64,000 nucleotides of DNA from Aplysia californica (Eukaryota): contig NW_004797315.1 of the NCBI RefSeq assembly GCF_000002075.1, positions 1,573,133 to 1,637,132 of the forward strand, in the 5' to 3' direction. Within the stretch, counting starts at the first letter, position 1, and each line of letters begins with the position of its first letter. The position numbers and the translations under genes are program-made. Positions 8,639 to 62,874 of the stretch are shown one piece after another. The notes beneath the pieces are model-generated. The model was not told the DNA's origin. It did not search any database and saw nothing but the letters and a program-made list of their open reading frames with translations.

Positions 8639-9107
8639 AACAAGATGGGCCACTCAGCCAAAAAAGTGTCCGCCGGAAGTTCGCTCTTTGCTTCAGATGG
8701 CGCTGCAGTCTGTTTTGAAGCTCTTTTTCGTTTTTCCAGAAGAAGAATAGGAATAGCACCTCCTTGCGTGCGCAGATCGACTGCTGTTCATCAGCAGTTC
8801 GGGCTCGCTCAGTGCGGAGTTTTAGGGGTTTTTTTGTATTTTAATGACCTCTCGTCTTTCATTCTTAAGTCAAATTAAACGAAGGAAACAATCACCCTTT
8901 CCTCCGGAAGAGGTTTTTTGTCAGCGTAACCATTTAAAACAAGTGTTCTTCCGAAAATCATTCAAAAACTTGCTAGTTTCACTTTGATTTTTTAAACTCA
9001 AGTAGGATAACTCTGTTCGCAAAAGGTGCGCTTTTGCGAAGAGGGCGCCACCGAATTTTCAGGACACTTTTTTAATTGGCTCAAAGAGAGAAGTGGCCCC
9101 TCTTGTT
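8639..9107. mobile_element. MITE with AACAAGA(T/G)GGGCCACT TIRs in satellite array
   Basis: ATAACAAGATGGGCCACT / AGTGGCCCCTCTTGTTAT; splits a satellite unit; AT flanks. Confidence 0.8.
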
Positions 9108-14890: not shown

Positions 14891-14948
<58 letters not shown>

Positions 14949-15114
14949 CGTCCGAGTGTCTCTCTCCTCTTTGTGCTGTTGTCTGTCTGATCTGTCACCA
15001 TAGTTTTTCTCTCTGTAAATGGATGTTTGTGTTCTGTCTCTCACTATCTTTCATTCACTCTGTTTCTCTCTTTCACTCTATGTCTCTCTCTCTTTCTTTC
15101 TTTTTCTCTCCCAC

Positions 15115-17885: not shown

Positions 17886-18323
17886 TGTGTGTCATCGTGG
17901 TGAAATCAGGCTCTCGTCAAACTGATGAAAGCAAAGAAACTGGCATTTTCCTAACCATTAAGCAATTTTTACTATTTAAAAACAAATCTTTGCCCCCACA
18001 CTTTTTACTTTTAAGTCTATTTAAAAACACATTACAGTATGGATTTTACTGAGGAAGAAAAAAAAAAGGAAATTTGCTGTTTCCAAAGATGTTCAAGCTT
18101 TGGAAGCAGCACATTTTGCAGTCATATTCTTCGTTATGTTACCTCTGTCAAAGGTGACGCCACCTCCTTCAATCACAAAAAATCTTGACTTCTAACCATG
18201 ATAGATGAGTTGTGTTTTTTTCATCACAAGCAAGACTAATTAACAAGCTTTAAAATGATACCAATGATTCACTCCTCGTGCCAAAGTACTGACGAGAGCC
18301 TGAAAATACCATGTCATGACTCA
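17886..18323. mobile_element. family M MITE
   Basis: same TIRs, TA flanks. Confidence 0.85.
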
Positions 18324-19111
18324 TATAATATTATGGATTATTAATTACAACGTAGGCCATTAGTTCCACAAAGTGAAGTATCTCAAGAACTTTACAGTAG
18401 ACTATACTGCACTTTCTACTGTTCTGAGCTTAGTTGATTTTTTTATAATCAAGTAAGCTTAGATCGTACTAATTTAAAGAAGATCTCTTCCATAACTTGC
18501 GCTGAAAGAAAACAGATCCTTTGTTCAGAAACAGGAATGTTAGTTTGAATTTCAGAAATGACAACAACAGCATAAAAAACAGGGCCGACTTGCTAGATTT
18601 CTTTATCTGTTTCATATAAGACTGACTTAGATAAGTTCACCATCCAAACTATAATAAAATAGTCTGAACAGATATTCATTGTCACTACCATCAGGCACCA
18701 ACTCAAATTTAGGAATATCGAACAACTGTCACAACAACATTCCTTTATAGATGTAGATGGTAGGCATGTTAGATCTAGATAAATTTGGTAAGCCTTGAAA
18801 AACAAAAAGACGAGGCAATTTACTTCTCTCACTCTAGAACTATGAAGAAGAAAAAATGTCGGAAATTTACTGGATTCAATATTGACTTAGAACATGATAA
18901 GTAAATTTGATTTCACTCCACAAAACTTTGTAACGTACTCAGATGGTGGGCCTCCTAAGACCTTCTAATAGAACACCCACACCTGAATCTGTACCGTTAG
19001 TCAATATTATAAACACTGAGGAAACACACAGCCATGAGGAAAGATCTCTTCCAAATGCACTCAAGCCTTATACATCGACAAGAAACAAAACTACAAAGGA
19101 GGAGAAACAGG

Positions 19112-19583: not shown

Positions 19584-19598
19584 AGAGAGCACTAAATA

Positions 19599-20038
19599 TT
19601 TGAAGCATCATGATGAAATCAGGCGCTCGTCAAAATAATGAAATTAAAGATACTGGCATTTTTTGCTGGTTTGGCAGTTTTTATCGAAATTTTGTTTTTT
19701 TGGCTCAACACCTTTTAATTATGTCCATTTAAGAACCCATTTCTGTGTAGATTTTACGGAAAAATCGTTTATTAAAGGCACAAAAAATGTAAATTGTCGT
19801 TTTCCACAGATTCTCAGGCTACGTAATAACCAACCTTTGGCACCTATTTTCTCTCTAATTTTAAAACTGAAACCAGGCGACCCCTCCTCTTTCCATCGCA
19901 AATATCCCGACTTGTATTCAAGATAAATGGGCATTTCCTTCATCAAATGCAAGACAAATGAACAAGCTTTAAGGTGATACCAATTACTCTACATGGCCAA
20001 AAATTGACGAGCGCCTGATTCTACCGTATCGTGACACA
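19599..20038. mobile_element. family M MITE
   Basis: same TIRs, TA flanks. Confidence 0.88.
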
Positions 20039-20156
20039 TATTGTACAGTCATCTGTCACACAAGAGGAAAAAAAGTCACACACATTTTTTAACGTAAACA
20101 AGGTGCAGCAATTCAACATGTAAACCATTCCCTCATCTCTCTCTCCGTTTAGACAT

Positions 20157-33200: not shown

Positions 33201-36200
33201 CTTGCTTTCAATTAAAAAATATCCATTTATCTTGAATAGAAGTCGAAATAGTTGCGATTGAAGGACATGGGGTCACCTGATTTCAAAAGTAAAATTAATG
33301 AGAAAATGGCCGCCAAAGTTTGGTGACTTCCATAGTTTAAGAGTCCTTAGAAACGGCAAATTTACATTATTTGGGCCTTTAATCAACGTTTTTGCATAAA
33401 ATCCACAAATTAAAGTGTTTTTGAACGGACATACAAGGTGTTGAGCCAAAAAACAAAAATTCGAAAAAAACGCCCAAACAAGCCGAAAATGCCGATTTCT
33501 CTGATTTCACTATTTTGACAAGGGCTTGATTTCACCATGATGCCTCACACATTGCTTCAACAAAATAAACAGGGCGCTGCACGGTGGCGACCAGCAACGG
33601 CATGTTAGCAAAATTGTTTGCTATTGCTGTTATATCGTGTATTTATGTATGTATTTATGCATGTATTTTTGCACTTTATGCACAGTGAATATTTGGTACC
33701 TGATAACTTTCTTGGCGCTCTCGATCTAGCGGTTGTACAATGGTTAAACGTCCGTTGGAGTCCATCCTGAAACTTGAGTAACTGTCACTGCTTGCTGACA
33801 GTTCAAAAGTGATGTTGGTGCCAGTGCGGGCTTCAGCATCAAAGAACAATTCATTCCCACCATGATCTTTGACAACATAGTTGGTCTCCTCCTGGGGGGG
33901 GGTCATAACAGCAAATACTAAAAGTCATACAAATACTAAGAGACACAAGTTAGGTCTTGTTTCAGATTTGTTAATAAAGATAATATTGATTACTTTACTT
34001 TTACCTTTTTTTACTTTTTCATCCTCTGTTGCTGTAAAGCGTCGAGGAGAGATGCAGTTTTCTATGGTAGGCCAGCTCTGCCATTTATGTAGTGCTCTTT
34101 TCTATACAAGGATAAGCTCTGAGCACTTTACATCAAAGAGGAGATAAGTAAAACCTAATACATACACCCCCCCCCCCTACAAAAAAACCCATTTCATATA
34201 AACAAGAAAACCAGTTCAACTACATACGGAAGAACTTTCTCAGTCATTCATTAATTTATACATGTTTAAGGACAGCAGTGAAAGCAAGACACATCGGCAA
34301 CTGCTAACACATTCCAACAGAGACATAAACAAATGAGTTCTATGTGACTATTTTTTAGGTCTCTTTTTGAGTGAAGCAAAATGGTCCCTTAAAGGCCATC
34401 TAATACTGAAAAAAAAAGAAGAAAAAAAAAAAAGACCTACTAGAGGTACCCTCTAACCACCTGTACAAGAATAGTCTTAGAGACAAACACTTTTCAATAC
34501 AGGATGTTGACTTTATAAGTAGGCTTTGGACGGGGGGTGGGAGTTTCAATGCTCCACTTTTTCCCCCTCAATGAATTGCATCAGTAGAAGAGAAGAAGAA
34601 AATGTAAACGTAATTGTAAGCGTATAGAGCTTGCTGTTGAGCGAGGATTTGCGCTATACAAATGCTATCTATTATCTATTATTATTAAACAAAATTCCTC
34701 AGTGTGAGAGGCAAGTCTGATGGAAAGAGAGGCAGAAGCAGACAGAGGGAAAAGATACTGGACAAGATGACAACATGGCTGGGAGGTGCAAGAACAACAG
34801 ACACCATTGCTGCAACGCAAGACAGAACGAAGTGGAGGTCCATGATCGACCACGCCACCGGATAATGATGATGAGAGGGAGGTGTTGTCATGAATCTACA
34901 CACACACACCCATAAACACTGACCTCGGGGGCATAGACAACGTGCCCCACTGGTGGTCCCAGCCACCTGGGGTTGCCATCGTTATCCTCAGTGCTGAGGA
35001 CTGTGATATCAATGGTCATGAAATCCGTCCTGGGCACGTTGCCGTTGTCCCGGGCTCGCACCCTCAGCGAGTACTTCTTGTCTCCTTTACCCACAAGGCT
35101 GGTGGCCACATAGATTGTGCCAAACAAGGGTGAGATTTGAAACAGCGACAACGCTGAAGAGGTAAATAGGCAGGTGAAACGAAAAGTGATTAATCGTCTT
35201 ACAGCACCTGAAAGACTTTCTCAAAGGGGCGGGGGGGGGGGGGGATAAAAACTCTGCAATCAAACACAATTTTTAGACACTCAAGTTTATCTTACCTTTC
35301 CAATATACTCAGTCGCTTTTTTAACTATTGAGTTGAAAAGAAAATCAAAAACAACATTCCCTCAAGAAAGTTGATTATTAAGGGGAGACATACACTCCCG
35401 GAAAAATTTTCTAAACAAATGACTTTTATTCACTTTCATGTAATTGTGCAAGAAGTTCATAGGTAAATAGGATGTACTAAGGTTGAATTTGTTGAATTTC
35501 ACTGAATAATGGGTCTCTGAGGCGGCCATCTTGGATTTTCAAACCAGTTTCTTAGTGCAGAAGAATTTCATAGTAAATATTGAATTATCAACTTGAAATT
35601 TGGCACACAAGTACAAACCTATATGAACTGGGGATCCATGTGGGATTTTGACCTATCTTTAGAACTAAAAAAGTCAGCCCAAAGTCATTGGACCCCCGAG
35701 AGTCAGTTGACGAAATTTTGGGGTACATATTACAAAAAAATTTTAATATTTCCACAAGTTACCAATATTTCACAATTCCCTAACATAGATCCCCAGAATA
35801 GATCTTAAAGCACCTGTACACCAAATTTGAAAACTCCTTGCACCAAAGATGTCACATATGTCAAAAAGTAGATTCTGAGAAAAACAGAAAAAACAGGGAT
35901 TTTTTAAAGGATTTTTAGAGCAATTTGAACTTTTCAAAGCCCTTTTAGGTCATTTCCGGTATTTTTTCAACAGTTTCTTCATTGTGACCCGATAGAACAG
36001 ATGTTTTCCCGCAAAAAACAAAAGTTGGATAGTTTGAAAAATGTTATCGATATTGCCTGGGATCGCCGACCCGCGTCTTCCCTTAATAATGATAACAATG
36101 CTAACTATGATGATGATGATGATGATGATGAATAATTTCTTTTTCCCCCACTCCGATACAATACAACTCTAGGTGCTTCACAATACTTTCATTTAAACAG

Positions 36201-39200
36201 AAAATAGTGTGCGTGAACAAATTAAGATTAAATTATTGAAGTTTCTAAAATATTCTTTTAAAACTGTAAAGCTTGTTGTGTTGTAAAGTTTTGATTTGCA
36301 TCTTCGAGGATTTCTTTCTACTATACACCCCATCCTATAAGAGATACACAATTATTGCTATTTCAGCTGTCCTGCCTTTTAAATGCCGAATTGTTTTCAT
36401 AGGAGCATTCAGTACTTCAACTTCAGGTTCCCCAACTGCCTCACGGGTAAACGTGTTCATAAATAAGAGCAGTGAACAAAATAAGAAACTTTATAAAAGT
36501 GTGTCGTACTTTTGTGTCCATTGACACCTGATTACAGGAATCCAAGGAGCTCACTGTACATCACCTGAGCTCACTCCACTAACGGTAAGCTGCAGTGTCC
36601 TATCTAAATATGAAGCAGACACCCACAGCAAGTGTAAACTGAGAACACAACAACACAACTATCCTGATCTGGCGTTTGTCATCTCTATGGACTTGCTCTA
36701 TGGGCAAGAACACCCAGATAAATATCTCCATCGGATTGTTCTATGGAAGGAACACCCTGATAAATATATTCATTGACTTGTTCTATGGGCAGGAACACCC
36801 AGATAAATATCTCCATCGGATTGTTCTATGGAAGGAACACCATGATAAATATATTCATTGACTTGTTCTATGGGCAGGAACACTTTGATCAATATATTCA
36901 TTGACTTGTTCTATGGGCATGAACACCCTGATAAATATATTCATTGACTTGTTCTATGGGCATGAACACCCTGATAAATATATTCATTGACTTGTTCTAT
37001 GGGCATGAACACCCTGATAAATATATTCATTGACTTGTTCTATGGGCATGAACACCCTGATAAATATATTCATTGACTTGTTCTATGGGCAGGAACACCC
37101 TGATAAATATCTCCATTAACTCCTTTTATGGCCAAGAACGCCCTGATAAATATCTCCATAGACTCGTTCTATGGCCAAGAACGCCCTGATAAATATCTCT
37201 ATTGACTCGTTCTATGGCCAAGAACGCCCTGATAAATATCTCTATTGACTAGTTCTATGGCCAAGAACGCCCTGATAAACATCTCCATTGACTTTTCCTA
37301 TGGACAGGAACACCATAAGGACTATGTAAAAAATAGAGACATTAGTTTAATTCTATCTTGAAGGGATATCTTACCTTCAAGACTATTGACCACACCATTT
37401 GCTTCAAGGGAATAAGTAATGCGACCATTCTCGCCGATGTCATCATCAAATGCTTGCACACTCGAAATCTCAGAACCAACATCAGCAGTTTCCGGAACAA
37501 CATAACTCCGAGAATCATCTTTGAAAACTGGCGAGTGGTTGTTCTCGTCAATGAGCTTGATAGTCAACTGTTGGCAAAAAAATTAGCTATTGACAGGATA
37601 AGACAAAGTCGGGGAAAGTCAAATCGACATTCACAGACCAAAACATAACTGACTCAAAGTTTAAAACTTCTTTCTATCTTACATTACATACATCTGCTTT
37701 TTCTACCTTATATCTGTCTATCAGCTTCCTTGGTGCTGCTGATGGGTATTTTTTTTGCATGGTAAATGAGGTAGATCTAGATCTTAAATTGTTGGTGAAA
37801 CAAAAACTTTAATGAATTCTAAATGATAGCGCAGACTGAATTCTTGTCGTTCAGGAAAATCCATGAGTTTCATTCTGGCAGATAGGAGTTAACAGAGACT
37901 TACCACCGCAGTGCTGGTTCTCCTGAGATTGGAAAATGATGTATCCACATTTGGGTTGTCAATGGCAAGAATGTCAAGCTTGTACAGGTTGCGTCTGTTG
38001 TAGTCCAGCTGCGCCCCCTCAGCAACCAAGACAACAGCATCTATATCCTAGAACACAAGCACAAACAACACATCAGATATTACACAGGGACTCTCGTGGT
38101 CTAGAGGTTAAGGTATTGGCCTCTTATTCAAAGGTCCCAGTTTCGAATCCGGACAGTGACAGAAAATTTTCTTCTCTAAAATTTTCTCCTTTCATATCCT
38201 TTCCTGCTCTCTAACAATGTTCTGTCGTCTGCTTTCGTCTCCACTTTCTGCCCCACCCCCTCACCTCCTTTGCCCCCTCCTCTTGGCTCCTGACTCTTTT
38301 TGCAGCCTTTCTACTGCTACTACTTGGCTCCTTCTTACTGCTGTTTTTCAGCCTCACCCCTGATCTTATGGTAGGTAAGATCTACACCTAGCTTTTTCGG
38401 GTAAGAGCAAATAAATCTTGAAGGTGCCATGTGCAAATTGCACACATTAAAGATTCCTTGGTCGTCCAAAATCAATAAGAGTACGCTTCAGCCACCACCC
38501 GGGCAAAACTCAAAATTTCCTGTCTGAAATTCTTTAATGTGTCCCGTGCACTCATATGACCTTATGCAGTTGTGAGCCTATCTGATTTAGTAACAGTCTT
38601 ACAATGAAACAAACAAACCTTCCGGAACAGGGTGAAATCCTCAGATCCCAAGCCACCAGAGATTCTGTAGTCGATGGGACCAAAACTGGAGCTGTCAACA
38701 TCAGTAGCCAGCACAGTGACGACCTCTGTCGGATACTGGGCTGTCTCCGAGATTTCCGCATAATAACTCTTCTGTAAAAGTGGACATTCACTTTAAGTAT
38801 GCATGGCTGGTTCTCAACAAAAACCCGAAAATGGCAATGGGTTCTTTTTAACAGCCTTCATTTTTGTGTGCTTCAGAGCAGCTTTTATGAAGCTTATCTT
38901 TGGAACCCTTCCACAACAGAGCTGTTCATGAAGTGATTATTTTTCTCCTTATCCTTTGAACCTCAGTACAATTCTATAGTGCGGTCAAAAATACTTGGCA
39001 ACTTATTGTCAAATATTTCTTAAACTATCGAACATAGACTCTCCAGCTTGTGCACAATGATTTGTATCAATTTGTCTTAACAGATCAATATTTTTGTAAA
39101 CACCTGTTCGCTGTATTCTAGAAAATTCCATAATAAATACTAATAAAAATTCCAAGAGTGGTATCTACAGATTTTAAAAGGTTAACAGCTAGGACATTAT

Positions 39201-42200
39201 CGCTTTCAAAAGCAAGTCCGACAGGGTTTTTTAAAAATCACGACATTATGCTTATTGAACACATGTTTTGAGAACCTTTAGTGCAAAACATATTTTCACA
39301 ATAAAATTATTTTCTTGTAATAAGTTTTGCTACTAAAAAGTGTCGTTGGTTAGCTGTGACAGGCCATATGAGTATACAAAATGTGTTAGAAGCAGGAAGT
39401 GCTGTGAACAATCCCATTTTCTGCATGACAGAGATTAATTGATTTATAGTATTTTATATAAATTTATGAAGAAATTTTTAAAAATCTAGCCTCAATTGTT
39501 GTGGGGGAAAAAAAAGGTAAAGTTAAGACAAATTGATACAAACTGCTGGGCAAAGTATGGGTGACATTGATTCCCCCGTTTAAGAGATATTTGAAGATAA
39601 GTTGAAACACTAATTTTTTACGACACACTCTTTAAGCATATATTACATTTACCCTTCTGAGCATGCATGCCTAAGCATGTGGCAGCAAAAACCTGGCAGT
39701 TGACCCATGAAAGCTCAAGCACAGAGACCCTGTAGGCTCAGGGGGCCCAAGGCTCATGCAATTAAATATTATGAGGTCACGTTTATTGAAGTATTGTTAT
39801 ACCAATATTAGGTATGATTCCACTAAACAATACATAAAAAGGATAATGCTTTAACATGCTTTCTTTCAGATGAGGACTAACATGTGCTCTTTGACTTAAA
39901 GCTAAAGAGAGAAAAAAAACCACCATCCTTCCCCCTCCAAACTAATTCACTGAACATATACCTTTACTTTGACATACAGAACAAAGACAAAAATGAAACA
40001 AACCCTCTGGAATACTGGAGAGTTGTCGTTGACGTCATTAATGCTGACAGTGACCGTGGCTGTTGCACTTCGCAGCCCATCTGTAGACATGGCCTTCACA
40101 ATGATCTGGTGTTCTTTGACCACCGTTTCATAGTCCACTTGACGAGCAAGGAGGATCTGGCCACCTAAACAATGAAAAGACAATGATACCAGCTCTTCAA
40201 AGGGTCTCTAAATCAAAACAGAATATGACAGGTGCAAGGGTGTATTTAGAGCCTAAAAAGCCACATCATGAAGTGGCAATCAGTCAAAATTCCACTTGCA
40301 TTTCAACACTTTACCTTCAGAATTGAAGATGTCCAGCTCAGCTTTATCCAACTGCAGACAGTCAAATCTACAAGAAAAAAGCCAGAAACATCCCAAGCCC
40401 ATACAGATAACATTGTTTGCACGAACATAATTATCTAAGAGACATTTTATTCACAAGTTACGCTAAGCATCACTGACAGAGAATGTCTATTTGTTTCATT
40501 TGAGAAAAGAAAAGCATTTCAACACAATAATGGTCATTTAGTGCTGGGACAAAGTAAGACAAGACAGACAGAAAGAACAAAGGGAAAGTAAAGAAATAGA
40601 AATCAGCACAACAGGCATCTGTTCATCCCATCATGAATCCTTGTAATGGGAATGTCCCTTTTTTAAACAATAAAAAAAAGCATGCAAATAAATTGTCAAG
40701 AAGAAGCAGGTAACATATATTAGCAATCGTCAATCGTGGTGAAATCTGGCACTTATCAAAATAACTAAATCGAAGATACTGGCATTTTCCCACCAGTTTG
40801 GTAATTTTTATCAATTTTTTGTTAATGGCTCAGCACCTTTTGTGTTTATTTAAAAACACATTTCTGATTGAATTTTACTGACAAATGTTGATAAAAGGCA
40901 CAAAAAGATGTAAATTTTCAGTTTCCAAGGACTCTCAAGCTTAGGCAATCACCAAACTTTACCTCTGATACTCAGTGACCCCACCTCCGACAATCGCAAA
41001 TATCTCGACTTCTATTCAAGAAAGATGCATATTTTATTCATCAAAAGATAGTGAAATGAACAAGCTTAAAGATGATACCAATAACTTCACAGGATCAAAA
41101 ATTGACGAGCGCCTGATTCTACCACATCATGACAAAGTTATTCTTTTTATCATATGATATACGATAAAAAGATTTAACTTTAAATTGACAGCACTGATGA
41201 AAGAGCACTCAGCATCCTACACTAAATGAATATTTCCAGTGGGAAACGAGAGAGAGAGAGAGAAAAGTACGTTGTTTTCCAGGGAAAGGGGTTTTTGGGT
41301 AAACACATTAACACAACAACAGTCATCCAATGCTGGGGAAAAAAACCCAAATAGACAGTGAAAACAGATGAAAAGTATAGAAGTAGAAACTGCAAGTGGC
41401 AACCTCCAACCACCCAAAAAGAATAGCTACATAAACCAAAAAATAGGAAGGTGGTCTCACCAGCAGTAACCGAAAAGTACTCAGAGGAAGGCTCCAGCTT
41501 GGAATATATGATACCAGTAGCTTGAGGGTCGTTGGCCGTGACTGTAGCTGCTCTGTAACCCACCACCTCATCTTCGTTCATAAAGCTGACGGGGATAGGG
41601 TCAAACCTGATGGCAGTGTCGGGCTCGCCTTCAATTATAATGGTCACTTGGGCTGGGAATAAGAGACAATACAAATGTGGAAATCAGTAAGAACGAGGCA
41701 GAGCATTTCTATTTATAGTCTTTTTTTAAAAAGGTTCGCCAGTTTTGGATCAAATTATGATATCTCATTCAGTCACTTCTGAGCCTAAAATAAGCTACTT
41801 GAGAATTTGGAGAAGGCATAGTTTTGCCTTAAAGTCTTTTAACACACTGAGGAAAGACAGAAACTGCATGATTTTGAGAAAAATGTATCTTTTAAGCAAT
41901 AAATGTCTTTCCTTTCATAATTTATCCTTTTTATCCTTTTTTCTCACCTACTATTCATTTTCTGTTTGATTACAATGAAATTTTAAGGATGTGTTACTCA
42001 CACCTAAACTTAATTTTATACTGTAGAACAGATGACTAGATGCATTTATGACTTATGAGTTAAGAATGACTGTGTAATCGCATTCAAAGGTGTAAGAGGG
42101 GAGGTAAGTTATCTGCCTATAATCTTTTTTTCCTGTTCAAGATATCCCTCAGCCCTACTTTATACACTTTGTTTGAGAATATCTACCAATAGACCAAATC

Positions 42201-45200
42201 TGAATAAATCTGGTGCATAAACAAAATGTCTTTGTTAGTTTTAAGATAACTTTTATTTTCAAAATGCCTGCCACTACCATGGTAATCTTGGATTTTGAGG
42301 GAAAAAAAAGTAATATCACTTTTTAGAGATATTTTCCTGGTATACCTCCGTGCAGCAATATAAAAAAACAACTTTATGGTTGAGAGCTACCAAGACAGGT
42401 CTGAAGTGTAGGGTAATAGAGGTACCAGAGGGTTGACAAATGGGGAAACAATCAAAGGTTTGAGTAGTCTTACATCCATGTTAAAACATTACCTGTAGCT
42501 GTTTGGACCCCTTTCTCTGCATTTACGTCCTGAACTTTGACAGAGAACGAAATTTCTTGAGCAATGTCTTTATCCAGTTTTCCATTGATTGTGATCCGTC
42601 CATTTTGGTCAATAGCAAATGCTTGCTGTAAATAATAGTTAAATATATATACATGCAAGTCGACCCAGAGCAACACGGAAAGGAGATTGAACAAAAGAAT
42701 GGGGACTGGATACACAAGAAAGCAGTATGATTGACCTACTTTTATGCCTCTTTTAGAATCAAAAAGGGAAGAGCATTGTCCAACATTGTAAACTGTGTTT
42801 GTTTTAGTAGAGGTTTTACGCCACTCGCAACTGCATAAGGTCATAGGAGCGCCAAGGGGTGGATGTCAACAGAGAAATCCTTACAGGGAATCAGACTTAC
42901 TCTGCTCACCTCTCTAGCTTCAGCATCACAAAGTCTGCTTCGACTATCAAGGCACCCCGGAAATAGCGGGTCACAAGAGTGTGACAAACATACAAAAGAA
43001 GTAGAGGAAAATGACGATAGTAAGGATTGGGAAAGAAAAAGCAGCAGTTCCCTGCTGCAGATCAGGCACAGTTATGAGCGTGATATGATGAATCAGCCCA
43101 TTTACAATTCTACTGTGCATGAATGAGAAATGTCCCCCCTTTGGGAAGGGCCTAAAGACACTTCAGTCAGTGGCACGGCCCCCGGGGGTGTAAACTGTGT
43201 TCAGTACGTCTGTAAACACAAATGCAAAATGAAAAGCAGCTCCGACTAATGAGAGGCCTTCAACTTGACATTGATTCCCGAAGGACAAAGCAAGATCACA
43301 GAAACAGTAACATGTTACATTGACTCTAATAATGACAATCTTTCAGATTAGTCTTTCAGGGAGAAATATCTTGGCTGTTTCTAAAGGCAATGTAATAACA
43401 AAAGTCATGAGCACTTGTGCATAAACACGACAAGAAAGGACATATATACATACATTATGCGCTGAGACAACTCCATTCTCCCCCGCCACCCCCTCCCCTC
43501 CTCTCCCCCCTCTTTCTCTGTCTGTCTGTCCATCCGTCTGTCTCTCTTTCTTTCTCTCTGTTTCAATTGTACCACTGTGTGTTTCAGTAACCTCACTGCA
43601 ATTGGTACAAAAGAATTCCTAAAACAAAAAATGACCAATTTGGCCCTTTTTATCATGGCTCCATATTTTGTCATTTGCCCAAGGGCACTACATTAATCAA
43701 CTTGCAAAATCAAAACACTGGGCCTGTTCCTCGGTAATGCTAAAGACCTCAAGGTTCTTTAAGAAATCTAATGATTGCATGAGTTGAATCCCTTCCAATA
43801 TAATAGACTTTGCCTTCATATTGCTGCATACACAAAAACGATAAACGAATAATGCAGAGCTTTCTCTCATACAGCAAATAAAGTACAACTTACAGTGTAA
43901 TCATAATTGTCAGAGTCCGAAAGCTTATTTCCATTCTTGTCACTGGCTTCAAAAGACTGCAGAGAGTAAACAAGCCGTTTGGTGGAATCTGGATCTTGAG
44001 CCTCTGTGGTAAGCACTGGGGTCCCTATGGGATCAGCTGCAAATGGGTGTGTGTGTTTGTGTGTGTGTGTGTTTGTGGTGGGCACAGGGGGGGGGGGGAG
44101 GGGAGAAAAAGACATTAAGACATTGCAAATTGTGTCTCATGAATGAGCAAGTCATGAGAACAAAAGGTAAAAAGCAAATCTTAAACATGCAAGGCTCAAA
44201 TAAAAGAAAAAAGTGCTTCACGTTAACATCAAATATGCTTTTTGTTTGGGTTTTTTTTGGCTCTCAACAGCATATGGTCATAAGAGCGTGTGGGACACAT
44301 TAAACATTTTCAGCTGGTAGAAAATTTTGAATCTTTCCCCGGGTGGCTGTCGAAGCCTACTCTATTCGATTTTAGACCAACAAGGGATCTTTAATGTGCG
44401 CGCACTTGCACATGAGACCTCCCAGTATTTTCGCCCCTATCCAAGAAGGCTAGGTATTAGAGACAGCAGTAAGAGGGAGCCAAGGAGTAGCAGTAGAAAG
44501 CCGGCAGAAAGAGCCAGGAGTCCAGAGGATGGGGGCAAAGGAGGTGAGGGGTGGGGGCAGAAAGTGAAGACGAAAGCAGGCAACAGAAGATTGTTAGAGA
44601 GCAGGAAAGGAGGGGAGAAGAGAAAATTTTAGAGAAAAAAATGTTCCCGTCACTATCCGGATTCGAACCAGTGACCTATTGAATGAAAGGCTAACACTGT
44701 AACCCCTCAACCAGGAGAGCCCCTTCAAATAAGTTTTCTTTTGATTGCATCAACAAAAGAAAGGAAGTTGAAAGTGAAACTAACTTTCCTGTGCGTTGGC
44801 TCTGTACAAGAATTTATCAAATTTAGGTGGCTTGTTGTTGGCATCCAAGATGACCACTGAGACATTCGCTGTGTCATTTAGCTGTGGGGCCCCACCGTCT
44901 GTTGCAAGGATCTGAAACAAACAAAAACAAAACATTACCGTGTCAATTGCTTTGTTTTGTTTTCACGGTTTACAATCAGTGATCTCTCTGAAAGACAACT
45001 CTTTCCCTACAAGCAGAAAATTTCCCATTCTGCATCCCTTCACTCATAATATACCAGTTCAACATTTCCATTAAGACTTTATCAACTAAAACTTCAGTTC
45101 TATTAAAAACAGTGGCGGATAAGATGCAAGAGCAAACTACACTTTTTGCTTGCATTTTGCCTAAACTGCAGAGCAGGACCCTTAAAGAATCCAGTATTAC

Positions 45201-48200: not shown

Positions 48201-51200
48201 AGCCAAAGAAATACACTCTTGCACAAGCCTCATAACGGATGCAATGGTTTCAAACACAGGATTAACATTAGTTTCCTGGAACTGTTGGTTCGGTGACCAA
48301 TTTTGTTGGAATAACAGAAGCCACAGCGTAGGTCCAATTAAAGAAACACTCTCATTTCAGTTACCAAACATAGGTAGATGGAATTTGAAAAAAAAATCCA
48401 AAAGAAAATGAACAATATACTAAATAAACTAAAATAATTTACCGAGTAAGCCAATGCGGCATGGCGCAGAAACTTCAAATCTTTGGCTTGCAAACTTTAA
48501 CAAAAGTTCTGCAAAATTAGCAGTCTGCCTGCGCTAAACTGGTGTGTGTCCAGACAAAATCAACAAATCAACCGACTGACTAAACTCTTTAACAATAGAT
48601 TAAAGTTCAGTAACTCTCTATATTTTTCCTGAGTTCTGATAATAAAATCTTTGATGGTCCCACAAATTGTAGATAAATGATAAATTGTAAAGCACATTGA
48701 CCCTACTTTCTAGAAGGGACATATACAAATAAAATGTAATCTATTTTTAACGATAAAAAGAAGCATAGCTAGAAAATAAGATTACCCAAGCTCAATAAAA
48801 CAAAGATTTCCTGTTGTACTCAAAAGGGTAGATAATTGGATGCAAGAACACCAGAAGTTCATTTAAAAAGTTTTCATTGCATACCTTTTGCTACAAATGA
48901 ATTCCACATGAAAACTGGGGGAGATTGGGGGGGTGGGGGGGGGGGGGGATCCACAAATGTCCAATTAAAACATTTTGGGGGGTTTTGCCACTTGGAATTT
49001 GCTGTAAGCCTTGGCTATTTTATCGTTAAAATATCAAGCGGGAAAGCTGCAAAAGTAAAGAGATATGGTCAATTCTTTTTTAAAGTGGTAAGAGAGAAGC
49101 ACAGACATCTTCAATGACGATGTTTCAATTTTCTGTTTTGTAAAAAGTGGACATCTGCGCTTATTCCCCCTTATTCTTCCAACGGCGTTGACCCTGATTT
49201 TTATTCCAGTGTGTATCTATTATTTCTCCGGGAACCATGGCTACTTTTCCCCCATACAATGAGAATTGTGTGTACTTACTATCCCAGCTTATTGCCTTGA
49301 GCATCCGTTGGTGTTGTATCATAATCTAAAGTGGCTCTTAGTGAAAGGGTTCCGTTGTAGGGTTCAATAAGGAAGGCATTGTTCGGGCTTTGTCCACTCA
49401 CAATACTGTACGAAATTCTGCCTGTGCCGTCTTCATTATCCACAGCCTGTGGAAGTTTTCATTTTGAAATCACAATTATTTCAGACGAAATCTTAAGTAA
49501 AGGTCTCCTACAAAACTATTTCGACCGAAATTCAATACATAAATACAAAATGATACAAAAGGAATGCAATGTTCAAACAAGGTGAAAGAACTTGTGTTTC
49601 ACACGCATTTGAAATATGCTTGATGAACTGGTGTAAGAGTAGGAATATGACTTTTGATCTATGCTGACGGTCAATTTAGCCTAAGATTGTCTCAAGGTTG
49701 TCTTCATGCAGCTTCTTTCATGGTTAATTCTTCCTTTGTTTGAGGCGCAGATTCTGTCGCAGTACTTGCATGTCAGTGATGTGGATCAAAACTCTGTATT
49801 TCCGCTGTTTACCTTTTGTCATTGATGAACTAAACAAAAAGTTACAACAAATATCAATTAACTCACTTAACCCCAAAACCAAGACATCCTGGTAAATATG
49901 TACCGCGCACAGAACCAAAAATGAAGATACTTCGGTCAAACACTTACTCTGGGGTTCCTTGTTTTTTCAGTCAAAACCACATTTGACAGCAACAAATTTA
50001 TCTTTTCAATTCTTATCCAATTTTGCTCCATTTTCATACAACTTTTTTTACAGAAAGGACCAAGACTTAATTTTCTTTCTTTCTTTTTGTAAGAGTTTTA
50101 TAGTACTTACAACACAATAAGCTCACATAAGTTCCGAAGAACAGAAAAGTTACAAGAAAGTAACAAACATAAAAAAGAAGGAGAGGAGATAAGGACGATA
50201 GATGTTTAATATGAAAGAAGAAGTAAAGCACACCAGAGCAGCTACCAACCGGCCACATTTAATTTTCTGTATCTAAACTCCAGACCACGTCTACTCTAAC
50301 TAGATCTAAACCAGATTTAACCTAAACCAGGACCTAGTTTTTTCAAAGTCTAGATTAATCTTGTAGGCTTACCATAGACAGTAAGAGCTAGATGTATATC
50401 TAGCTATCTATTCCTAGACCTCGATTATAATAGATACTCAATATAGCAGTCTGTAAGTACAAAATCCAGCATCAAAAATGCTAAAAAAAACCGCAACAAA
50501 TGATTTTTTCCCTGAACCTCAAAATTGCCCTCTTTTTTTAAAAGTTCATTTTTAAAAATCGTACTCAGCCCCAAATACAGTTGAAATTGTCCAAGACTGT
50601 AATCTACTGTCAAGAAAAAAAGTGGCCATCTTAAGATATTCGGTCACCAAACACAATGCCATTATAATGTAAAGGGGAAACTCAAGGGGATGAATAGGAA
50701 ATGGCCGTCAGTACAGGTGACTGTTTCATACTGATGGCTGTTAGAGCTGGTTTAACAGTACATTTATTCAAATGTACAGCAAAGGCGAAAAAAAAAAAAA
50801 TCAGGTGGGGTTTTATTGCATCAAAAAATATATAAAACTAAAATGACTCTTCAAAAATTTCTAACAATGGCTTTTCTCGGGTGATTCGTTTCAACATCTG
50901 GGCCACTCTCAAATAAATTAACCTAAATGCTCTGGAAGGGTGACTTCTAAATCTTTTACAAGAAACGCGTGAAAAAAAAAAATACTTAGCTCTGAGCAAT
51001 CTCTAAGTCGTCATACAATAATGTACAACATGGGGTACAACGTTCTACGGAGTTCACACTGCTATTCAATCTCCCTCTTATTTCATCAGCCGTCTTATTG
51101 TAATTCCTAATTGTCTTCACAACAAAGGGATGGAAAAATAAACCCAAAACACATCAGGGAAGAATAAGAATAAGAGTATTAAGAATAATAAGACGTATAT

Positions 51201-54200: not shown

Positions 54201-57200
54201 GGAACTCCTGCGAGAGAACCAAGAACCCGGCTCGTTTTGGCTGGGCTGAACACTAGCGCTGCATTTTTTTCGTACAGGTATAAGAGGGGTTGAACATTGG
54301 TGCAGGATATTTTACTGTTCAGCAGCTGCAAGGTTGAACAGGAACGGGACAGGACCAAAACAAAGATATCACACTTTCCAGAGTCCAGGGCATAGGACCA
54401 AATTCACTATATCTCAGTCCAACATTTCAAAATAAATTTGGGCCACTCTTGGGTGATTTAGCGATAACCTTAAAAGCCATAACATTTCAGTCTGGAGCTA
54501 AAAGGAGTCGAGCAATCACAATGATAGTCAAAATTAAATAGGAAAAAATAGACAAAAGAAAAACAAAAAAATTATATGATGAGAGAAATGAAACCTTTCA
54601 CACAGCAAGAAGCTCCTTTTGACTATGTGTTATAATTTCAAGAAGAGTAACAATATTGCCTGAATGCTGAGACAGACTATTTTTCTAAAACATGCCAATA
54701 GGTTGGGGCGAAAGGTTTGTGAGGACAAAAAAAAAAATCCCTTCATCCTGCTCCAAAAATTCCGTCTTACTTATCAGAGAATCCTCCTTCCAGTCTATAT
54801 TCCACTTCACCATTCAAGCCAGAATCTTTGTCCGAGGCCTGTTCAAAAAAAATAATTTTAGAGTTTAGAAAGCACTCAGGGGGCAGGGTTTCTCTTTTTT
54901 TATTTTTTTTACACCTGAGAGAGAGCTAATTCTGCTTGAACTAGCTGGTTCCACTCAACATCACAATCAAAATACAGAAAGCTACTTTTACTTCTTTCGG
55001 TGGAATGGGCCACACGTTATGAGGATTAATAAAGAGCAAAAGATCCTTCAGGGTGTAATAAGTTACAAAAAAAACTAGTGTAACCCTGGACTGCATCTGA
55101 CTGTCATAAGGGCACAAGGATTGAACATTCAAAGTTATAAAAACCTCGAAAGAAACATCAAAATGAGAGAAAATTGGGACATTGTATTTATGACCCCTAA
55201 AAAAATTAAAAAATTAAGAACCAAAATATATCTAAAATTTCAGTAACCCTCAGATTTAAACAAGTGTTGATTATAATGCTAAAGAAAATGAAGGACCCAA
55301 AAGCAAGACATAGCTTCAGATTACAACACATTAATAATAGCATCTCTCAGTTATGTTTCCGCAATTTATACAGCGCCAACAGTACTAAACTGAAAGTTTC
55401 TAACGACTATGAGTTAAAAATATAAGAACCATAGCCAAGAACAATAACAGATAGGCCTCCTCTGTAAAACATAGATACCAAGTGCCACTTTAAAGTGTAA
55501 CACAAAAATTGGGTCACAGCTCAGCACTAGTAAATGATCCACATAAAATACACAAACAAAACTAATATAATACTTACAAACACTCTTAGTAGAGGATATG
55601 GAAAGGTGTTCACACTTTCACTGACATTTGCACCATATGAAACCGCATTTAATATAGGAGTGTTGTCATTGAGATCCACAAGATTGATGACAACCTTTGT
55701 GGTGCTCGAGAATAGCTCAGCGGTTTTAAGTTCTCTGGCTTCCAGCTGTCAGGAGAGAGGAGAAATAATGGGTTGTTGTTTTAGTAAGGTTTAACAGCGC
55801 TCGCAACAGCATAAGGTCATATGAGCGCCAAGGGGTGGATGTCAACAGAGAAGTCCAAACCGGGGAAGCAGGCTTACTCTCCTCACCTCTCTAGCCTCAA
55901 CAGCACAAAGTCTGCTTCGATTATCAAGGCACAAAGTCTGCTTCGACTATCAATGCACCCCCTAAATAGTAGTTCACAAGAGAGTGACAAATATACAAAA
56001 GAAGTAGAGGGAAAATGAGGATAGTAAGGATAAGGAAAAAAAAAGCAGCAGTTCCCCCATGTTGTTCCGGCACAGTATGAGCGTGACATTGATAAATCAG
56101 CCCATTTACAATTGCACTGTGCATAAGAATATGTTAATATGTTAACTCTTTCCACGCGTATCTCCGATATATCGGCGCGAGTCCACACCCTTCACGGACG
56201 TATCGCCGATATATCGGGTGTGATAGGATGCTTTAGTATTGTTTCGTTTTAATACGATCCGTCATTTATAATTACTTTTTGTTGTTATTGAAAAACTCAG
56301 AAAGGATTTAGGAAACGAAATTATCTAATTTCACTTTGGGAAAGCCTGGATTTGGGGAAAAACAAGTGAATTAGTTCTTGCGGTCTTGCATCAATAAAAC
56401 GATGTAATCGGACTCAGTATAAATATCCTAACTCAAACAAAAATTGGAATATAGCTTTCAAATAAAAAGCTGTGCATTCAGAAATTTATGGATTATGCTC
56501 GTGGCCTGTATATGATAAGATAGCTATGCTGGTTTGCTTTTACATGTTTGGTGAATGTAATTTTTTCAGTCAAAATGTACTTTTCACGTCACCGTCGCCA
56601 TTTCTAACCCTTCTAATGCATATTTATGTTCAAAATTCATCCTTGTTTTATATTGGCATGTATTCCTCATTCAATCTCCTTCAAATTGATATTTCATATG
56701 TTACGCTTGGAATGATGGTTATATGCTTCTATGAAGTTATTTTGTACACCACCAGCATAGCCAAAGCGAGCCACAGATTAATTATGTCTAGACCCCCAAA
56801 AAACTACATCCCCAGAAGAGTTAATATCCCCCCTTTGGGAATGCACCAAAGAAACTTCAGTTATTGGTAATGCCATGCAAGGTTATAAAGTGAATGCATC
56901 TCTACACACAAAAAATATGTATACAATACAGCTGCACTTTTATAACTTTTCCAATGTCATTCATTTTCTTAGCTATAATAGGAACATATTTTTTAGACAA
57001 AAGGGATCAAAAGAAAAGTCATGGCTAATCTAAGCAAACACTTTTATGACAAACCAAAGGTATGAGGAAACGACACAAGAAATCTCAGATGCAAAGACGA
57101 CACAGCTCTCAAATCATAAACACTAGGTGGTCTCTAAGCTCTGATTCTACCAGTAAAAGAACACAGTGAAATAGAGGGCTCGTGTTAAACGTAAAGAAAG

Positions 57201-61300: not shown

Positions 61301-62874
61301 TGTCATCTGTCAAAAACTTTGAATTTGAAAAAAATATGAACATTAAAAAATCCATTTTTCTTCGTGCAAAAAAATGTAACCAGATTTCTCTTTACTATAA
61401 TAGAAAATTCTGTAAAATAACAACACATCTGACATCCAACCAATAGGAATGAGACTCGTGTCAAGATATTACAATCATAAAGCAGAAAAAAATCCTTTGT
61501 CCAGAATAGAGCCGGTCGGCTCCAAACTCTCAACCACATTGAAAGCCTACTGTGCCTCATTGCTATCCCCAAGACTCCCACAACCATACAATAAAAGTAA
61601 CACCTGCAAAATAAAAGAAAGTGAACAAAAAAAGATTGCTGTAAAATAAAAGTTTGCGCACTGACCTTCTACGATTTCCAATTTCACAGGTCTCCTGGCT
61701 CCTGTGTCTCCATCTCTAGCAGACACGGCAAATGACAGCACTGTGTTCTGCATTAGGTCAGGAAGGAAAGGCAGTGTTTCAGTAAAAGATAATGAATGGG
61801 GGCCATTATTAAGCTCTAACGGTAATGCTTTAGTTTATTTTAGTAAGAGTTCTATGGCACTTGCAACACAAATAGGTCATATAAGAGTCAACAATTAGAG
61901 GTATTACTATGGACTTTTTTTTAATTTTATTTCTTAGAGCTTTTTCGGCACTCGCAACTGCATATGGTCATATGAGCGCCAAGGGGTGGATGTCAACAGA
62001 GAAGTCTTTACAGGGAATCAGGCTTACTCTGCTCACCTCTCTAGTTTCAACAGCACAAAGTCTGTTTCGACTTTCAAGGCACCCCAGAAATAGCCGGTCA
62101 CAAGAGTGTGACAAAATACAAAAGAAGTAGAGGAAAAATGACAATAGTAAGGATTAGGAAAAAAAAAAGCAGAAGTTCCCTGTTGTAGATCAAGCACAGT
62201 TATGAGCATGACATTGATGAATCAGCCCATTTACAATTCTACTGTGCATGAACGAGAAATGTCCCCCTTTGGGAATGGCCTAAAGACACTTCAGTCAGTG
62301 GCACTGCCCCGCAGGGTTACTACAGATTAAAATACAAAGAAAAAACCTCAAAAATCTATAATGTTACGCATTTCTCTCCCCATTGAAACTAATATGGAAA
62401 CAAAAAGCACACATAGACCTCTTGTTTCATGTTGGTTTTATGATGCTAGGGCAAGAACTAATAAATTTATGAACCGAGAAAGAGGAAAAACTGGGATTTT
62501 CACATAAATCGCCACTCGCCGGTCGAGTGTAAAACCCCCTAATATTATAGTGAAATCATATAATTTTCACCGACACCTCAGGGTATTCGTCAACGACACT
62601 ATGAGGGCAAACCTATTAAAATATAGCCGGAAAGTTGACAGATCATATCAAAGAGGGTGCTAAAAACTATAGCAAATAAAAGTTGTAGAGCAATAAGGAA
62701 AACTCTGTCAGGGGATGGAGAACAGACAGAGTAACTTACAACTGGGATGTTTTCAGGAACGTTTGTACTGGCACCAGGGTTGGTGAAGACAGGACCAACA
62801 TCCTGAGCATCCACAAGGTTGAACTGAATGTTGGTGGTTGAGGAGAGGTGACTGATTCCAAGACCTGGTCCATC
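21268..62874 (-). CDS. Large non-classical cadherin, Cad87A/Cad88C/cadherin-23-like (spliced, 33 exons in window, 5' end missing)
   Basis: Hand-assembled GT-AG exons keep frame throughout (4,737 nt incl. stop). They show repeated cadherin motifs (DxNDNxP, LDRE/LDYE, AxDxD, AxDxG), a DAQDxGPVF...DGDTG..RP segment typical of CDH23/Cad87A-like proteins, then a non-cadherin membrane-adjacent domain and a TM helix. Confidence 0.93.
21495..22420 (-). mobile_element. degenerate RTE-like LINE remnant (endonuclease end + 3' end)
   Basis: [25 protein letters not shown] resembles the APE C-terminal motif; GKKSRERQ...(GAA)n resembles an RTE 3' end. Confidence 0.65.
22800..22831 (-). CDS. juxtamembrane microexon ([11 protein letters not shown])
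   Basis: 32 nt, TACAG acceptor / GTAAGT donor, basic stop-transfer sequence. Confidence 0.75.
24040..24235. repeat. degenerate (CA)n microsatellite
   Basis: direct reading. Confidence 0.9.
24258..24391 (-). CDS. transmembrane exon (QCYPS...[28 protein letters not shown])
   Basis: ~25-aa hydrophobic stretch, phase 0-2. Confidence 0.9.
24827..24962 (-). CDS. membrane-adjacent-domain exon (TDVCFLASD...YIDRG)
   Basis: phase 2-0. Confidence 0.85.
25339..25425 (-). CDS. membrane-adjacent-domain exon ([13 protein letters not shown]...SNTA)
   Basis: phase 2-2, AG/GT. Confidence 0.8.
26833..26921 (-). CDS. membrane-adjacent-domain exon ([14 protein letters not shown]...PLI)
   Basis: phase 0-2, AG/GT. 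Confidence 0.85.
27890..28203 (-). CDS. cadherin exon, last EC (AIQATG...[10 protein letters not shown]...KQIIS)
   Basis: phase 1-0, 314 nt. Confidence 0.9.
28907..29173 (-). CDS. cadherin exon (CRRG...VDYE...SRRKRAF...DQNDNGPKF...)
   Basis: phase 1-1; contains RRKR. Confidence 0.92.
29604..29739 (-). CDS. cadherin exon ([12 protein letters not shown]...[10 protein letters not shown]...NEY)
   Basis: phase 0-1. Confidence 0.9.
30805..31018 (+). mobile_element. possible LINE ORF2 C-terminal fragment with (GA)n tail
   Basis: ...[18 protein letters not shown]... resembles C-termini of RNaseH-type LINEs; weak. Confidence 0.3.
31154..31291 (-). CDS. cadherin exon (LLVYAQD...DKNDNDATF...CGSG)
   Basis: 138 nt, phase 0-0. 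Confidence 0.9.
32202..32422. mobile_element. TTAA-flanked MITE (Kolobok-like GG end)
   Basis: TTAA-GGACAAGCGGGCTAACCCG ... CGGGATAGCCCCCTTGCGC-TTAA. Confidence 0.65.
32439..32874. mobile_element. family M MITE (inverted; partial duplicate at ~31497-31748)
   Basis: same TIRs and body. Confidence 0.85.
33119..33549. mobile_element. family M MITE (inverted)
   Basis: same TIRs and body. Confidence 0.85.
33700..33891 (-). CDS. cadherin exon (EETNYVV...[11 protein letters not shown])
   Basis: 192 nt, LDRE motif. Confidence 0.9.
34715..34873 (+). mobile_element. RTE LINE 3' fragment (same family as 3902-4283)
   Basis: close match to 4120-4283, (TGA)n tail. Confidence 0.85.
34924..35153 (-). CDS. 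cadherin exon (ALSLFQISP...ARDNG...EDNDGNPRW...APE)
   Basis: phase 1-0. Confidence 0.92.
35382..36082. mobile_element. TTAA-flanked non-autonomous DNA element (Kolobok-like)
   Basis: TTAA-GGGGAGAC ... GTCTTCCC-TTAA. Confidence 0.65.
36680..37315. repeat. 43-bp intronic minisatellite (~15 units)
   Basis: TTGACTTGTTCTATGGGCATGAACACCCTGATAAATATATTCA. Confidence 0.95.
37375..37567 (-). CDS. cadherin exon ([15 protein letters not shown]...[10 protein letters not shown]...)
   Basis: phase 0-1. Confidence 0.92.
37904..38047 (-). CDS. cadherin exon ([17 protein letters not shown]...TSTAV)
   Basis: 144 nt, phase 0-0. Confidence 0.9.
38088..38580 (+). mobile_element. SINE family A copy
   Basis: colinear with 1069-1593; fills most of a 571-nt intron. 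Confidence 0.88.
38619..38771 (-). CDS. cadherin exon (KSYYAEISE...[10 protein letters not shown]...FRK)
   Basis: 153 nt, phase 0-0. Confidence 0.9.
38977..39632. mobile_element. Tc1/mariner-like MITE; inverted partial copy at ~9690-10205
   Basis: imperfect ~45-bp TIRs (AGTGCGGTCAAAAA...CAACTTAT..CAAATAT); body matches the reverse complement of 9690-10205. Confidence 0.65.
40004..40164 (-). CDS. cadherin exon ([13 protein letters not shown]...[11 protein letters not shown])
   Basis: phase 1-0. Confidence 0.92.
40725..41134. mobile_element. family M MITE
   Basis: same body, decayed ends. Confidence 0.8.
41461..41652 (-). CDS. cadherin exon ([17 protein letters not shown]...YFSVTA)
   Basis: phase 1-1; atypical linker. 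Confidence 0.88.
42493..42625 (-). CDS. cadherin exon ([11 protein letters not shown]...[13 protein letters not shown])
   Basis: phase 0-1. Confidence 0.9.
42800..43188 (-). mobile_element. ~390-bp retroposon family B (non-tRNA head, shared hairpin tail)
   Basis: perfect 13-bp TSD TGTAAACTGTGTT (42787-42799 / 43189-43201); two further copies. Confidence 0.85.
43894..44036 (-). CDS. cadherin exon ([17 protein letters not shown]...NYDYT)
   Basis: phase 1-0, AxDPD motif. Confidence 0.9.
44265..44722 (-). mobile_element. SINE family A copy
   Basis: colinear with 1069-1593, small internal deletion. Confidence 0.88.
44785..44911 (-). CDS. cadherin exon ([11 protein letters not shown]...DANNKPPKF...)
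   Basis: phase 0-1. Confidence 0.9.
45740..45918 (-). CDS. cadherin exon ([15 protein letters not shown]...SYDFQ)
   Basis: phase 1-0, FRVDPDTG and FDY motifs. Confidence 0.92.
46099..46417. mobile_element. piggyBac-like MITE
   Basis: (C)TAA-CCCTTTGAGCCCT ... AGGGTTCATAGGG-TTAA. Confidence 0.7.
46608..46965 (-). mobile_element. tRNA-derived SINE family C (CORE-like body, L2-type tail)
   Basis: TGGCCTAGTGG A box, GGTTCGAATCC B box, TGTGTCCTTGGGAAAGGCACTT body, GCGCTATACAAATGC(TAT)n tail. Confidence 0.88.
47494..47566 (-). CDS. cadherin exon ([24 protein letters not shown])
   Basis: phase 0-1, linker motif. Confidence 0.9.
48110..48188 (-). CDS. cadherin exon ([26 protein letters not shown])
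   Basis: ASDGGxP motif, phase 2-0. Confidence 0.92.
49280..49446 (-). CDS. cadherin exon ([15 protein letters not shown]...LDYDTTP...)
   Basis: phase 0-2, LDYD motif. Confidence 0.9.
50075..50258 (-). mobile_element. degenerate family c retroelement 3' end
   Basis: similar to 700-870 (GGAGATAAGGAC, CACACCAGAGCA). Confidence 0.6.
51637..51756 (-). CDS. cadherin exon ([17 protein letters not shown]...PITIT)
   Basis: 120 nt, phase 0-0, linker motif. Confidence 0.9.
52893..53016 (-). CDS. cadherin exon (FSIDSVSG...LDYE...[12 protein letters not shown])
   Basis: LDYE and AxDxG motifs, phase 2-0. Confidence 0.92.
54771..54838 (-). CDS. cadherin exon ([22 protein letters not shown])
   Basis: AxDxDxGxNG motif, phase 0-2. 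Confidence 0.9.
55578..55745 (-). CDS. cadherin exon (LEARELKT...DLNDNTP...LRVF)
   Basis: DLNDNTP motif, 168 nt. Confidence 0.9.
55780..56883 (-). mobile_element. family B copy interrupted by a TTAA MITE
   Basis: 55780-56141 and 56821-56883 together match 42800-43188. Confidence 0.8.
56146..56820. mobile_element. piggyBac-like MITE nested in family B retroposon
   Basis: TTAA TSDs, CTCTT...AAGAG ends, two subterminal CCGATATATCGG palindromes. Confidence 0.75.
57690..58012. repeat. (GA)n, N-gap, (CAA)n/(CAG)n microsatellites
   Basis: direct reading. Confidence 0.9.
58655..58898. mobile_element. piggyBac-like MITE
   Basis: TTAA-CACTTTAAAGACGC ... GCGTCTTCAGTGAG-TTAA. Confidence 0.65.
59141..59311 (-). 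CDS. cadherin exon (PSNAEYEV...[15 protein letters not shown])
   Basis: LDYD motif, 171 nt, phase 0-0. Confidence 0.87.
59796..60014 (-). CDS. cadherin exon (AIELD...DVNDNPPEF...LDRDE)
   Basis: DVNDNPP motif, 219 nt, phase 0-0. Confidence 0.92.
60424..60557 (-). CDS. cadherin exon (DVYGVF...[16 protein letters not shown])
   Basis: LDRE motif, phase 1-0. Confidence 0.9.
60581..60634 (-). mobile_element. 54-bp tail-only retroinsertion
   Basis: perfect 12-bp TSD AAACAGAATATA (60569-60580 / 60635-60646). Confidence 0.85.
60775..61209. mobile_element. family M MITE
   Basis: same TIRs and body. Confidence 0.82.
61666..61747 (-). CDS. cadherin exon ([27 protein letters not shown])
   Basis: AG/GT flanks, 82 nt, phase 0-1. 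Confidence 0.88.
61935..62316 (-). mobile_element. family B copy
   Basis: colinear with 42800-43188, same 5' end. Confidence 0.85.
62740..62874 (-). CDS. cadherin exon (DGPGLG...DAQDVGPVF...ENIPV)
   Basis: AG/GT flanks, 135 nt, phase 0-0. Confidence 0.88.

Follow-up and report, generated by a model that had tools for sequence, protein, structure and literature searches.

Family A and its parts in the window

The window analysed here is a stretch of 64,000 nucleotides of Aplysia californica DNA, and plain coordinates refer to it throughout. It carries three copies of a short retroposon, which we call family A, together with the target-site duplication (TSD) of one copy and an insert in another:

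42800..43188, minus strand: family A copy 1, full length, young subfamily, 389 nt
43189..43201: 13-bp TSD on the element's 5' side, identical to 42787..42799
42787..42799: 13-bp TSD on the element's 3' side, identical to 43189..43201
55780..56883, minus strand: family A copy 2, old subfamily, 5' end decayed, broken by an insert
56142..56824: insert of copy 2, 683 bp, TTAA at both ends, short inverted termini
61935..62316, minus strand: family A copy 3, young subfamily, almost full length

The perfect 13-bp TSD that an earlier note on this DNA had claimed for one copy is exact in copy 1 (42787-42799 / 43189-43201). The 5' end it had described as common to the three copies is confirmed as well, approximately in the case of copy 2, whose 5' end has decayed and whose blastn alignment stops at reference position 9. 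Copy 3 is 91.5% identical to copy 1 over 378 nt, and copy 2, with an identity of 80%, is split by the 683-bp TTAA-flanked insert. A second copy of this insert, 88% identical, is present at locus L095, and we take the insert to be a piggyBac-like non-autonomous DNA transposon.

From its 5' to its 3' end, copy 1 is made up of the following parts:

43134..43188, minus strand: 5' domain with a starting C run, whose predicted pairing partner is a G6 run at nt 50-55; start signature shared with the resident Nimb-type LINEs
43060..43124, minus strand: long two-helix hairpin, present in all five subfamily consensuses
42968..43047, minus strand: C/T-rich (CT) tract opening with a T5 run, common to a second short retroposon, family B (z 14)
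42855..42967, minus strand: structured 3' body
42800..42854, minus strand: 3' tail stem-loop, then short A-rich repeats

The tail stem-loop at 42800..42854 is common to an autonomous LINE (LINE a), to family B and to a tRNA-headed SINE, and the 3' body at 42855..42967 had no match in the resident Nimb or Ingi LINE regions with which it was compared.

Copy number, 5' start and subfamilies of family A

Exact matches in the genome (G000) number 7,452 for a 21-mer taken from the 3' body and 3,418 for one taken from the head, against 0 for each reversed control; both counts are lower bounds on copy number. To locate 5' starts, we used 30 copies chosen by the 3' 21-mer alone, three of which adjoin assembly gaps, and the sequence upstream of the start differs between them. 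The common 5' end expected of copies across the genome was found in the 16/30 that start at reference position 1-3, and the others start at 8-24 (6/30), 43 (1/30) or 170-290 (7/30). The best 30 matches to family A are all of unit length, in a selection that favoured unit length. The fixed start is real and coexists with ordinary 5' truncation.

The 93 long copies divide into an older subfamily, whose members differ from its consensus by 7.8%, and younger subfamilies, for which the figure is 3.4-4.5%. For the TSD test, 30 head-anchored copies were fetched, 20 of which had a locatable tail; flanking repeats of at least 9 nt were present in 11 of these 20, as against 5 of 100 mismatched controls. 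Family A has the variable-length TSDs and 3' simple repeats of a non-autonomous non-LTR retroposon, and the defined ~390-nt retrotransposed unit proposed from the window is borne out by the TSD, the 389-nt length and the genome-wide fixed start. Family A is a real, very abundant ~390-nt mobile element. As a side observation, C runs that reach 20 bases or more occur at the 5' junction at loci L004, L011, L012, L021 and L209; these long runs, seen once at a truncated copy, suggest slippage or untemplated addition by the reverse transcriptase (RT) as readings.

The shared tail and the probable partner LINEs

The tail of family A is identical to the 3' end of LINE a at 39/42 positions (93%), within the last ~45 nt, so that the retroposon and an autonomous LINE resident in the genome have a tail in common; the tail-only insertions carry it too, as do family B and the tRNA-headed SINE. 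The tRNA-headed SINE, ~520 nt long, has both Pol III boxes (A and B) as well as the family A tail; it lies at 1074-1595 (-), 38087-38578 (+) and 44259-44724 (-), and its central domain is, we suspect, Nin-type. Family B, a non-tRNA retroposon of ~170 nt, is found at 697-875 (-), with an older relative near 50080-50260 (-); it has a fixed head of its own, the CT tract and tail of family A, TSDs, and 2,713 first-look candidates. Insertions that consist of the tail alone, about 50 nt long and in many cases flanked by repeats, occur at 60580-60632 (-) in the window and at loci L136-L165.

Searching with a zinc-knuckle pattern, we arrived at two LINE families, a and b, whose intact members are ~6 kb long and have two ORFs; LINE b is 6.1 kb long and ends in a more distant tail than LINE a. 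Both are present at full length with TSDs and an ORF2 of 1226 aa; they combine a CCHC ORF1 with APE, RT and RNase H domains in ORF2, which is the anatomy of Nimb, and the nearest named relatives of ORF1 are gastropod, Aplysia californica foremost. We call the partner LINEs Nimb/I-type on this anatomy, on their presumably Nimb-type tail and ORF1 motifs and on a match by eye of their 5' module to the Nimb-17 homology region. Two other searches were set aside: a search for the partner by RNase H family returned, in the 30 of 150 matches examined, no LINEs other than Ingi-like ones ending in (AAC)n or (GA)n, and a search for a third LINE by tail pattern gave only tail-only or truncated SINE insertions among 30 of 205. 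Loci L086-L095 hold three single-ORF Ingi-like LINE families that have almost no 3' UTR and end in (AAC)n, (GA)n or (AAGAAC)n. A second tandem 5' module lies upstream in the LINE copies at L119, L172, L184, L188 and L197, and LINE b has a weaker internal repeat of its 5' module (22 bits).

The ORF2 protein of the Nimb/I-type LINE that shares the tail likely copies family A in trans, probably by recognising the shared ~45-nt tail and then carrying out target-primed reverse transcription. Tail recognition followed by target-primed reverse transcription is established for SINE-LINE pairs.

Pol III signals and transcription

A scan of the window found no tRNA, and the lack of A and B boxes in the head, already apparent by eye, was upheld by a box scan that does find both in the tRNA-headed SINE of the window. 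No Rfam family matched copy 1 at E up to 10, or any of the four other copies searched at E up to 5; with no Rfam match and no tRNA, an origin from a known small ncRNA found no support. Family A thus lacks the small-RNA head and Pol III boxes of tRNA/5S/7SL SINEs. Each of the five subfamily consensuses has a T5 run near nt 150, and such a run would terminate Pol III transcription. From the internal T5 run and the missing A and B boxes we infer transcription by Pol II or by read-through.

Three polyA RNA runs each gave about 10,000 reads at 88% likeness, on both strands and with no pile-up at the start; the head was covered 20-30-fold less deeply than the tail, whose depth includes contributions from the other tail-sharing families. 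This pattern fits read-through, lends no support to a promoter within the element and says little on source copies. Reads joining tail to head (2, 13 and 8 in the three runs) were rejected as a sign of circular RNA, since 8 genomic sites have a head right behind a tail.

The resemblance of the RNA reads to read-through bears on one alternative account of the fixed 5' end, namely that it marks a stable stem of a longer RNA at which reverse transcription tends to stop or truncate, with a head that has neither promoter nor catalytic function. The common occurrence of tail-only insertions with TSDs also agrees with this account, as the machinery evidently inserts short products. We nevertheless consider it very improbable, because no examined copy continues into a common upstream sequence and there are at least 4 subfamilies, each from unit-length sources.

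Predicted RNA structure of the head

The structural claims made from the window fared unevenly when they were compared across 20 copies. The long hairpin was borne out, with 90-98% of cells paired in the 20 copies and a presence in all five consensuses, and the differences among subfamilies lie in loops or retain the pair. The inner 6 pairs of the proposed 8-bp helix hold in 90-100% of copies, whereas the outer two are broken in 7/20 and 7/15. Two further elements turned out to be largely private to copy 1 and fail as family features: the 7-bp pseudoknot is 58.6% paired, with 3/7 pairs broken in 17/20 copies, and the third hairpin is 65.7% paired, with 2/7 pairs broken in 16/20 and 18/20. Pair 26-61 was scored in 93 copies as A-T in 49, T-T in 26, A-A in 13, T-A in 1 and other combinations in 4. 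Nucleotides 9-14 are predicted to be able to pair with nucleotides 142-147, right before the T5 run.

The covariation score of the 20 copies was reached by 57/500 shuffles and so shows no excess, and the suggestion of a conserved new motif is not sustained by this check. Low covariation is an absence of support for the structure rather than a disproof, because the copies of one young family poorly reveal structural selection. Folding z values were -3.2, -1.9 and -2.1 for three copies and -2.1 to -3.3 for the subfamily consensuses, with -2.0 for an arbitrary stretch of ORF2, which serves as a crude folding control only.

HDV-like and LP-type modules at the 5' ends of Nimb-like LINEs

HDV-like ribozymes occur at the 5' ends of L1Tc/ingi, R2, RTE and other LINEs. 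Among Nimb-like LINEs from metagenomes, we observed different 5' modules ahead of one conserved UTR core. One class is HDV-like: 4/11 candidates fit, from the first base, a descriptor of our own, built from the nested double pseudoknot layout (P1-P2-P3/L3-P1.1-P4, catalytic C), and one Nimb-like candidate matched RF02682 at 42.6 bits, just below the cut-off of 44. Textbook HDV-like folds open Nimb-like two-ORF LINEs at L314:1070, L336:819, L340:236-314 and L345:1461. The ribozyme-bearing clades listed by Kojima 2018 (PMC5786205) do not include Nimb, and our literature search found no paper joining an HDV-like ribozyme with Nimb retrotransposons.

The other class, which is also found on LINE a and b, consists of a C-run/G-run stem with a sequence-variable pseudoknot helix, an A-rich linker and a two-helix hairpin. 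It occurs on Nimb-like LINEs from many animals, at L117:8605-8689 (-), L124:8785-8869 (-), L267, L268, L277, L341 and others, and at L343 it stands behind an HDV-like candidate. In a per-sequence check, the expected pseudoknot helix was the best helix in 8/12 modules of this class, and none of the seven loci scanned matched Rfam. By eye, this module equals the head of the LP (LINE-promoter) SINEs as drawn in supplementary figure S2 of Matetovici et al. 2016 (PMC4758252); in the sections of that paper used here, LP-SINEs are described from gastropods and bivalves, and their head is a ~70-nt module of Nimb-17_LMi/I-3_DR/RTE-9_CPB. The alternation of HDV-like folds with a conserved module of another type at the 5' ends of Nimb-like LINEs makes the question of promoter or ribozyme directly testable.

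Head A resembles the HDV-like 5' ribozymes in its position at the 5' end and in its C-run/G-run opening stem, which the HDV-like modules of the Nimb-like LINEs seen here also have. Unlike these ribozymes, however, it has no P3/L3, P1.1 GG, P4 or catalytic C register. The descriptor fits the 5' end of none of the five consensuses or two window copies, and the HDV-module model (R2) has no sense-strand match on head A, so that the non-fit to the canonical HDV layout stated by the earlier note is upheld; an HDV-like ribozyme at the head, for which there is no Rfam ribozyme match either, is not supported.

A self-cleaving RNA of an unrecognised type, whose cleavage at the foot of the C-run stem would release the unit from read-through transcripts, is an unlikely source of the fixed start. 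Such a head would be consistent with the HDV-like folds that sit at exactly this position in the Nimb-like LINEs of other animals, with a fixed start that has no Pol III signals and with the low head coverage in polyA RNA. The missing fits to HDV, R2 and Rfam ribozyme models and the lack of covariation argue against it, as does the fact that the folding z of the copies (-1.9 to -3.2) is matched by the -2.0 of an arbitrary ORF2 stretch.

Origin of the head

We hold, with somewhat more confidence than doubt, that family A is an abundant short retroposon, likely mobilised by Nimb-type LINEs, whose head is most likely a diverged LINE 5' end. On this view the head would serve as an internal promoter for Pol II and thereby define the 5' start; it may descend from a Nimb 5' end that is now lost or unsampled. 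The element as a whole would have been assembled by module swapping, its middle recurring in family B and its tail in three families.

The layout common to head A and the LINEs consists of an A plus C5-6 behind the TSD, a C-run/G-run stem, a two-helix hairpin and a CT tract. The base preceding the C run is A in 18/31 SINE copies and 27/34 LINE copies, and the C run has 6 bases in 13/31 SINE copies and 5 in 28/34 LINE copies. The top match of the CT tract within LINE b is the equivalent place in the 5' UTR, a colinear match that is weak and of low complexity (z 2.8-3.8). The old subfamily agrees with the LINE linker at 7 of the 9 nt that follow the G run, and is predicted to form a 6-bp helix in the register of the LINE pseudoknot. 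Linker identity and helix occur jointly in 0.14% of 5000 shuffles, in a post hoc comparison; the helix alone is not significant (p 0.07), is weak at -3.6 vs -15.6 kcal/mol, and shrinks to 4 bp in two young subfamilies that have been successful. These traces make a remote descent from a LINE 5' end possible, and do not amount to a conserved pseudoknot.

Direct homology was sought at several levels. Head A was present on 0/60 ORF1-bearing LINE loci, 0/8 variant matches to the 5'-UTR core and 0/80 Nimb-like loci from metagenomes, and the conserved Nimb 5'-UTR core is missing from family A. A covariance model of the LP-type head (R1), built from 12 modules, scored at most 6.6 bits on head A (E about 7) and 57.8 bits on a LINE b copy that resembles the sequences used for training. 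Head motifs gave 1 unrelated chance match in viral contigs and 0 in prokaryote genomes. The view of the head as a LINE 5'-UTR module, one of the branches raised at the outset, is the best supported, by the A plus C-run start, the C/G stem and the position of the CT tract, but the head was found on 0/60 LINEs, and for that reason a "bipartite deletion derivative" is unproven.

The lack of a significant sequence match between the head and either LINE 5' end is also what would be expected if an unrelated RNA, either a small ncRNA or the 5' end of another element, had been joined to a Nimb tail by template switch, with a C-run start that is convergent or was added at insertion. We regard this as a possible origin, though a considerably less probable one than descent from a LINE. 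The pairing of nt 9-14 with nt 142-147 resembles a closed small RNA, the truncated copy at L209 also has a long C run, and in family B the same middle and tail are joined to a fixed head of a different, unrelated kind. On the other hand, there is no Rfam match and no source locus among 30 head-anchored and 30 old-subfamily loci, and the C run is mostly fixed in length and has a pairing partner.

Comparison with known short retroposons

Among described elements, family A is closest in mode to the LP-SINEs. As far as the sections of Matetovici et al. 2016 (PMC4758252) used here describe them, these too are short and TSD-flanked, with a non-tRNA head that opens with a C run, a CT-rich stretch, and tail and body modules shared with tRNA-headed SINEs, and their transcription by Pol II has been proposed. 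Family A accordingly has the LP-SINE combination of a non-tRNA head, TSDs and modules shared with tRNA SINEs. Set against the LP-SINE head of those sections, however, that of family A is ~140 nt long, its C/G-run stem encloses 43 nt rather than about 8, and homology between the heads failed (at most 6.6 bits), the R1 module being equated with the LP head by eye only. Given this LP-SINE-like mode and failed head homology, we file family A as a variant, in a comparison made through papers and Rfam. A literature search with five short motifs of head A and the LP-type module found no paper.

The bipartite non-autonomous LINEs (RIME, NARTc, RTE-N and Vingi derivatives; Kojima 2018, PMC5786205) resemble family A in having no ORF, a LINE 3' end, a fixed 5' end and likely Pol II transcription. 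In contrast to them, the 5' part of family A is not on its partner LINE, and only 45 nt of the 3' end are shared; the bipartite elements in that paper belong to RTE, Ingi, Vingi and R2 only, without Nimb. As for the Nimb-mobilised tRNA SINEs of molluscs (Meta and V), the part of PMC11481361 consulted gives a Nimb tail homology of 35-61 bp at 72-95%, compared with 42 bp at 93% in family A; unlike these SINEs as described there, family A has no tRNA head, and we recognised no conserved central domain in it.

How short retroposons without Pol III promoters acquire a defined 5' end is treated as an open point in the sections of PMC4758252 used here. Family A, being young and high in copy number, is suited to testing this, and the LINE that is probably its partner is still intact alongside it in the genome. 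Should the head be no more than a diverged promoter, family A would simply add to the lineage-specific repeat families. A more far-reaching reading, to which we give little credence, is that Nimb LINEs swap HDV-like and LP-type modules and that head A is an expanded LP-type module representing a new class of start-defining, possibly self-cleaving RNA; were it true, a new RNA class would have let a tRNA-free retroposon reach thousands of copies.

Further repeats of the window

The window also contains eight copies, at 64-78% identity, of a MITE-like family of ~440 bp with inverted ends:

7551-7985: MITE-like ~440-bp copy
17878-18326: MITE-like ~440-bp copy
19593-20042: MITE-like ~440-bp copy
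31497-31748: MITE-like ~440-bp copy
32430-32878: MITE-like ~440-bp copy
33110-33557: MITE-like ~440-bp copy
40733-41139: MITE-like ~440-bp copy
60769-61220: MITE-like ~440-bp copy

Minisatellite-like tandem arrays occupy 4283-6359, 7225-9370, 10391-11185 and 36681-37314, and an inverted pair of 1.35 kb, 84% identical, lies at 2130-3480 and 13751-15079.
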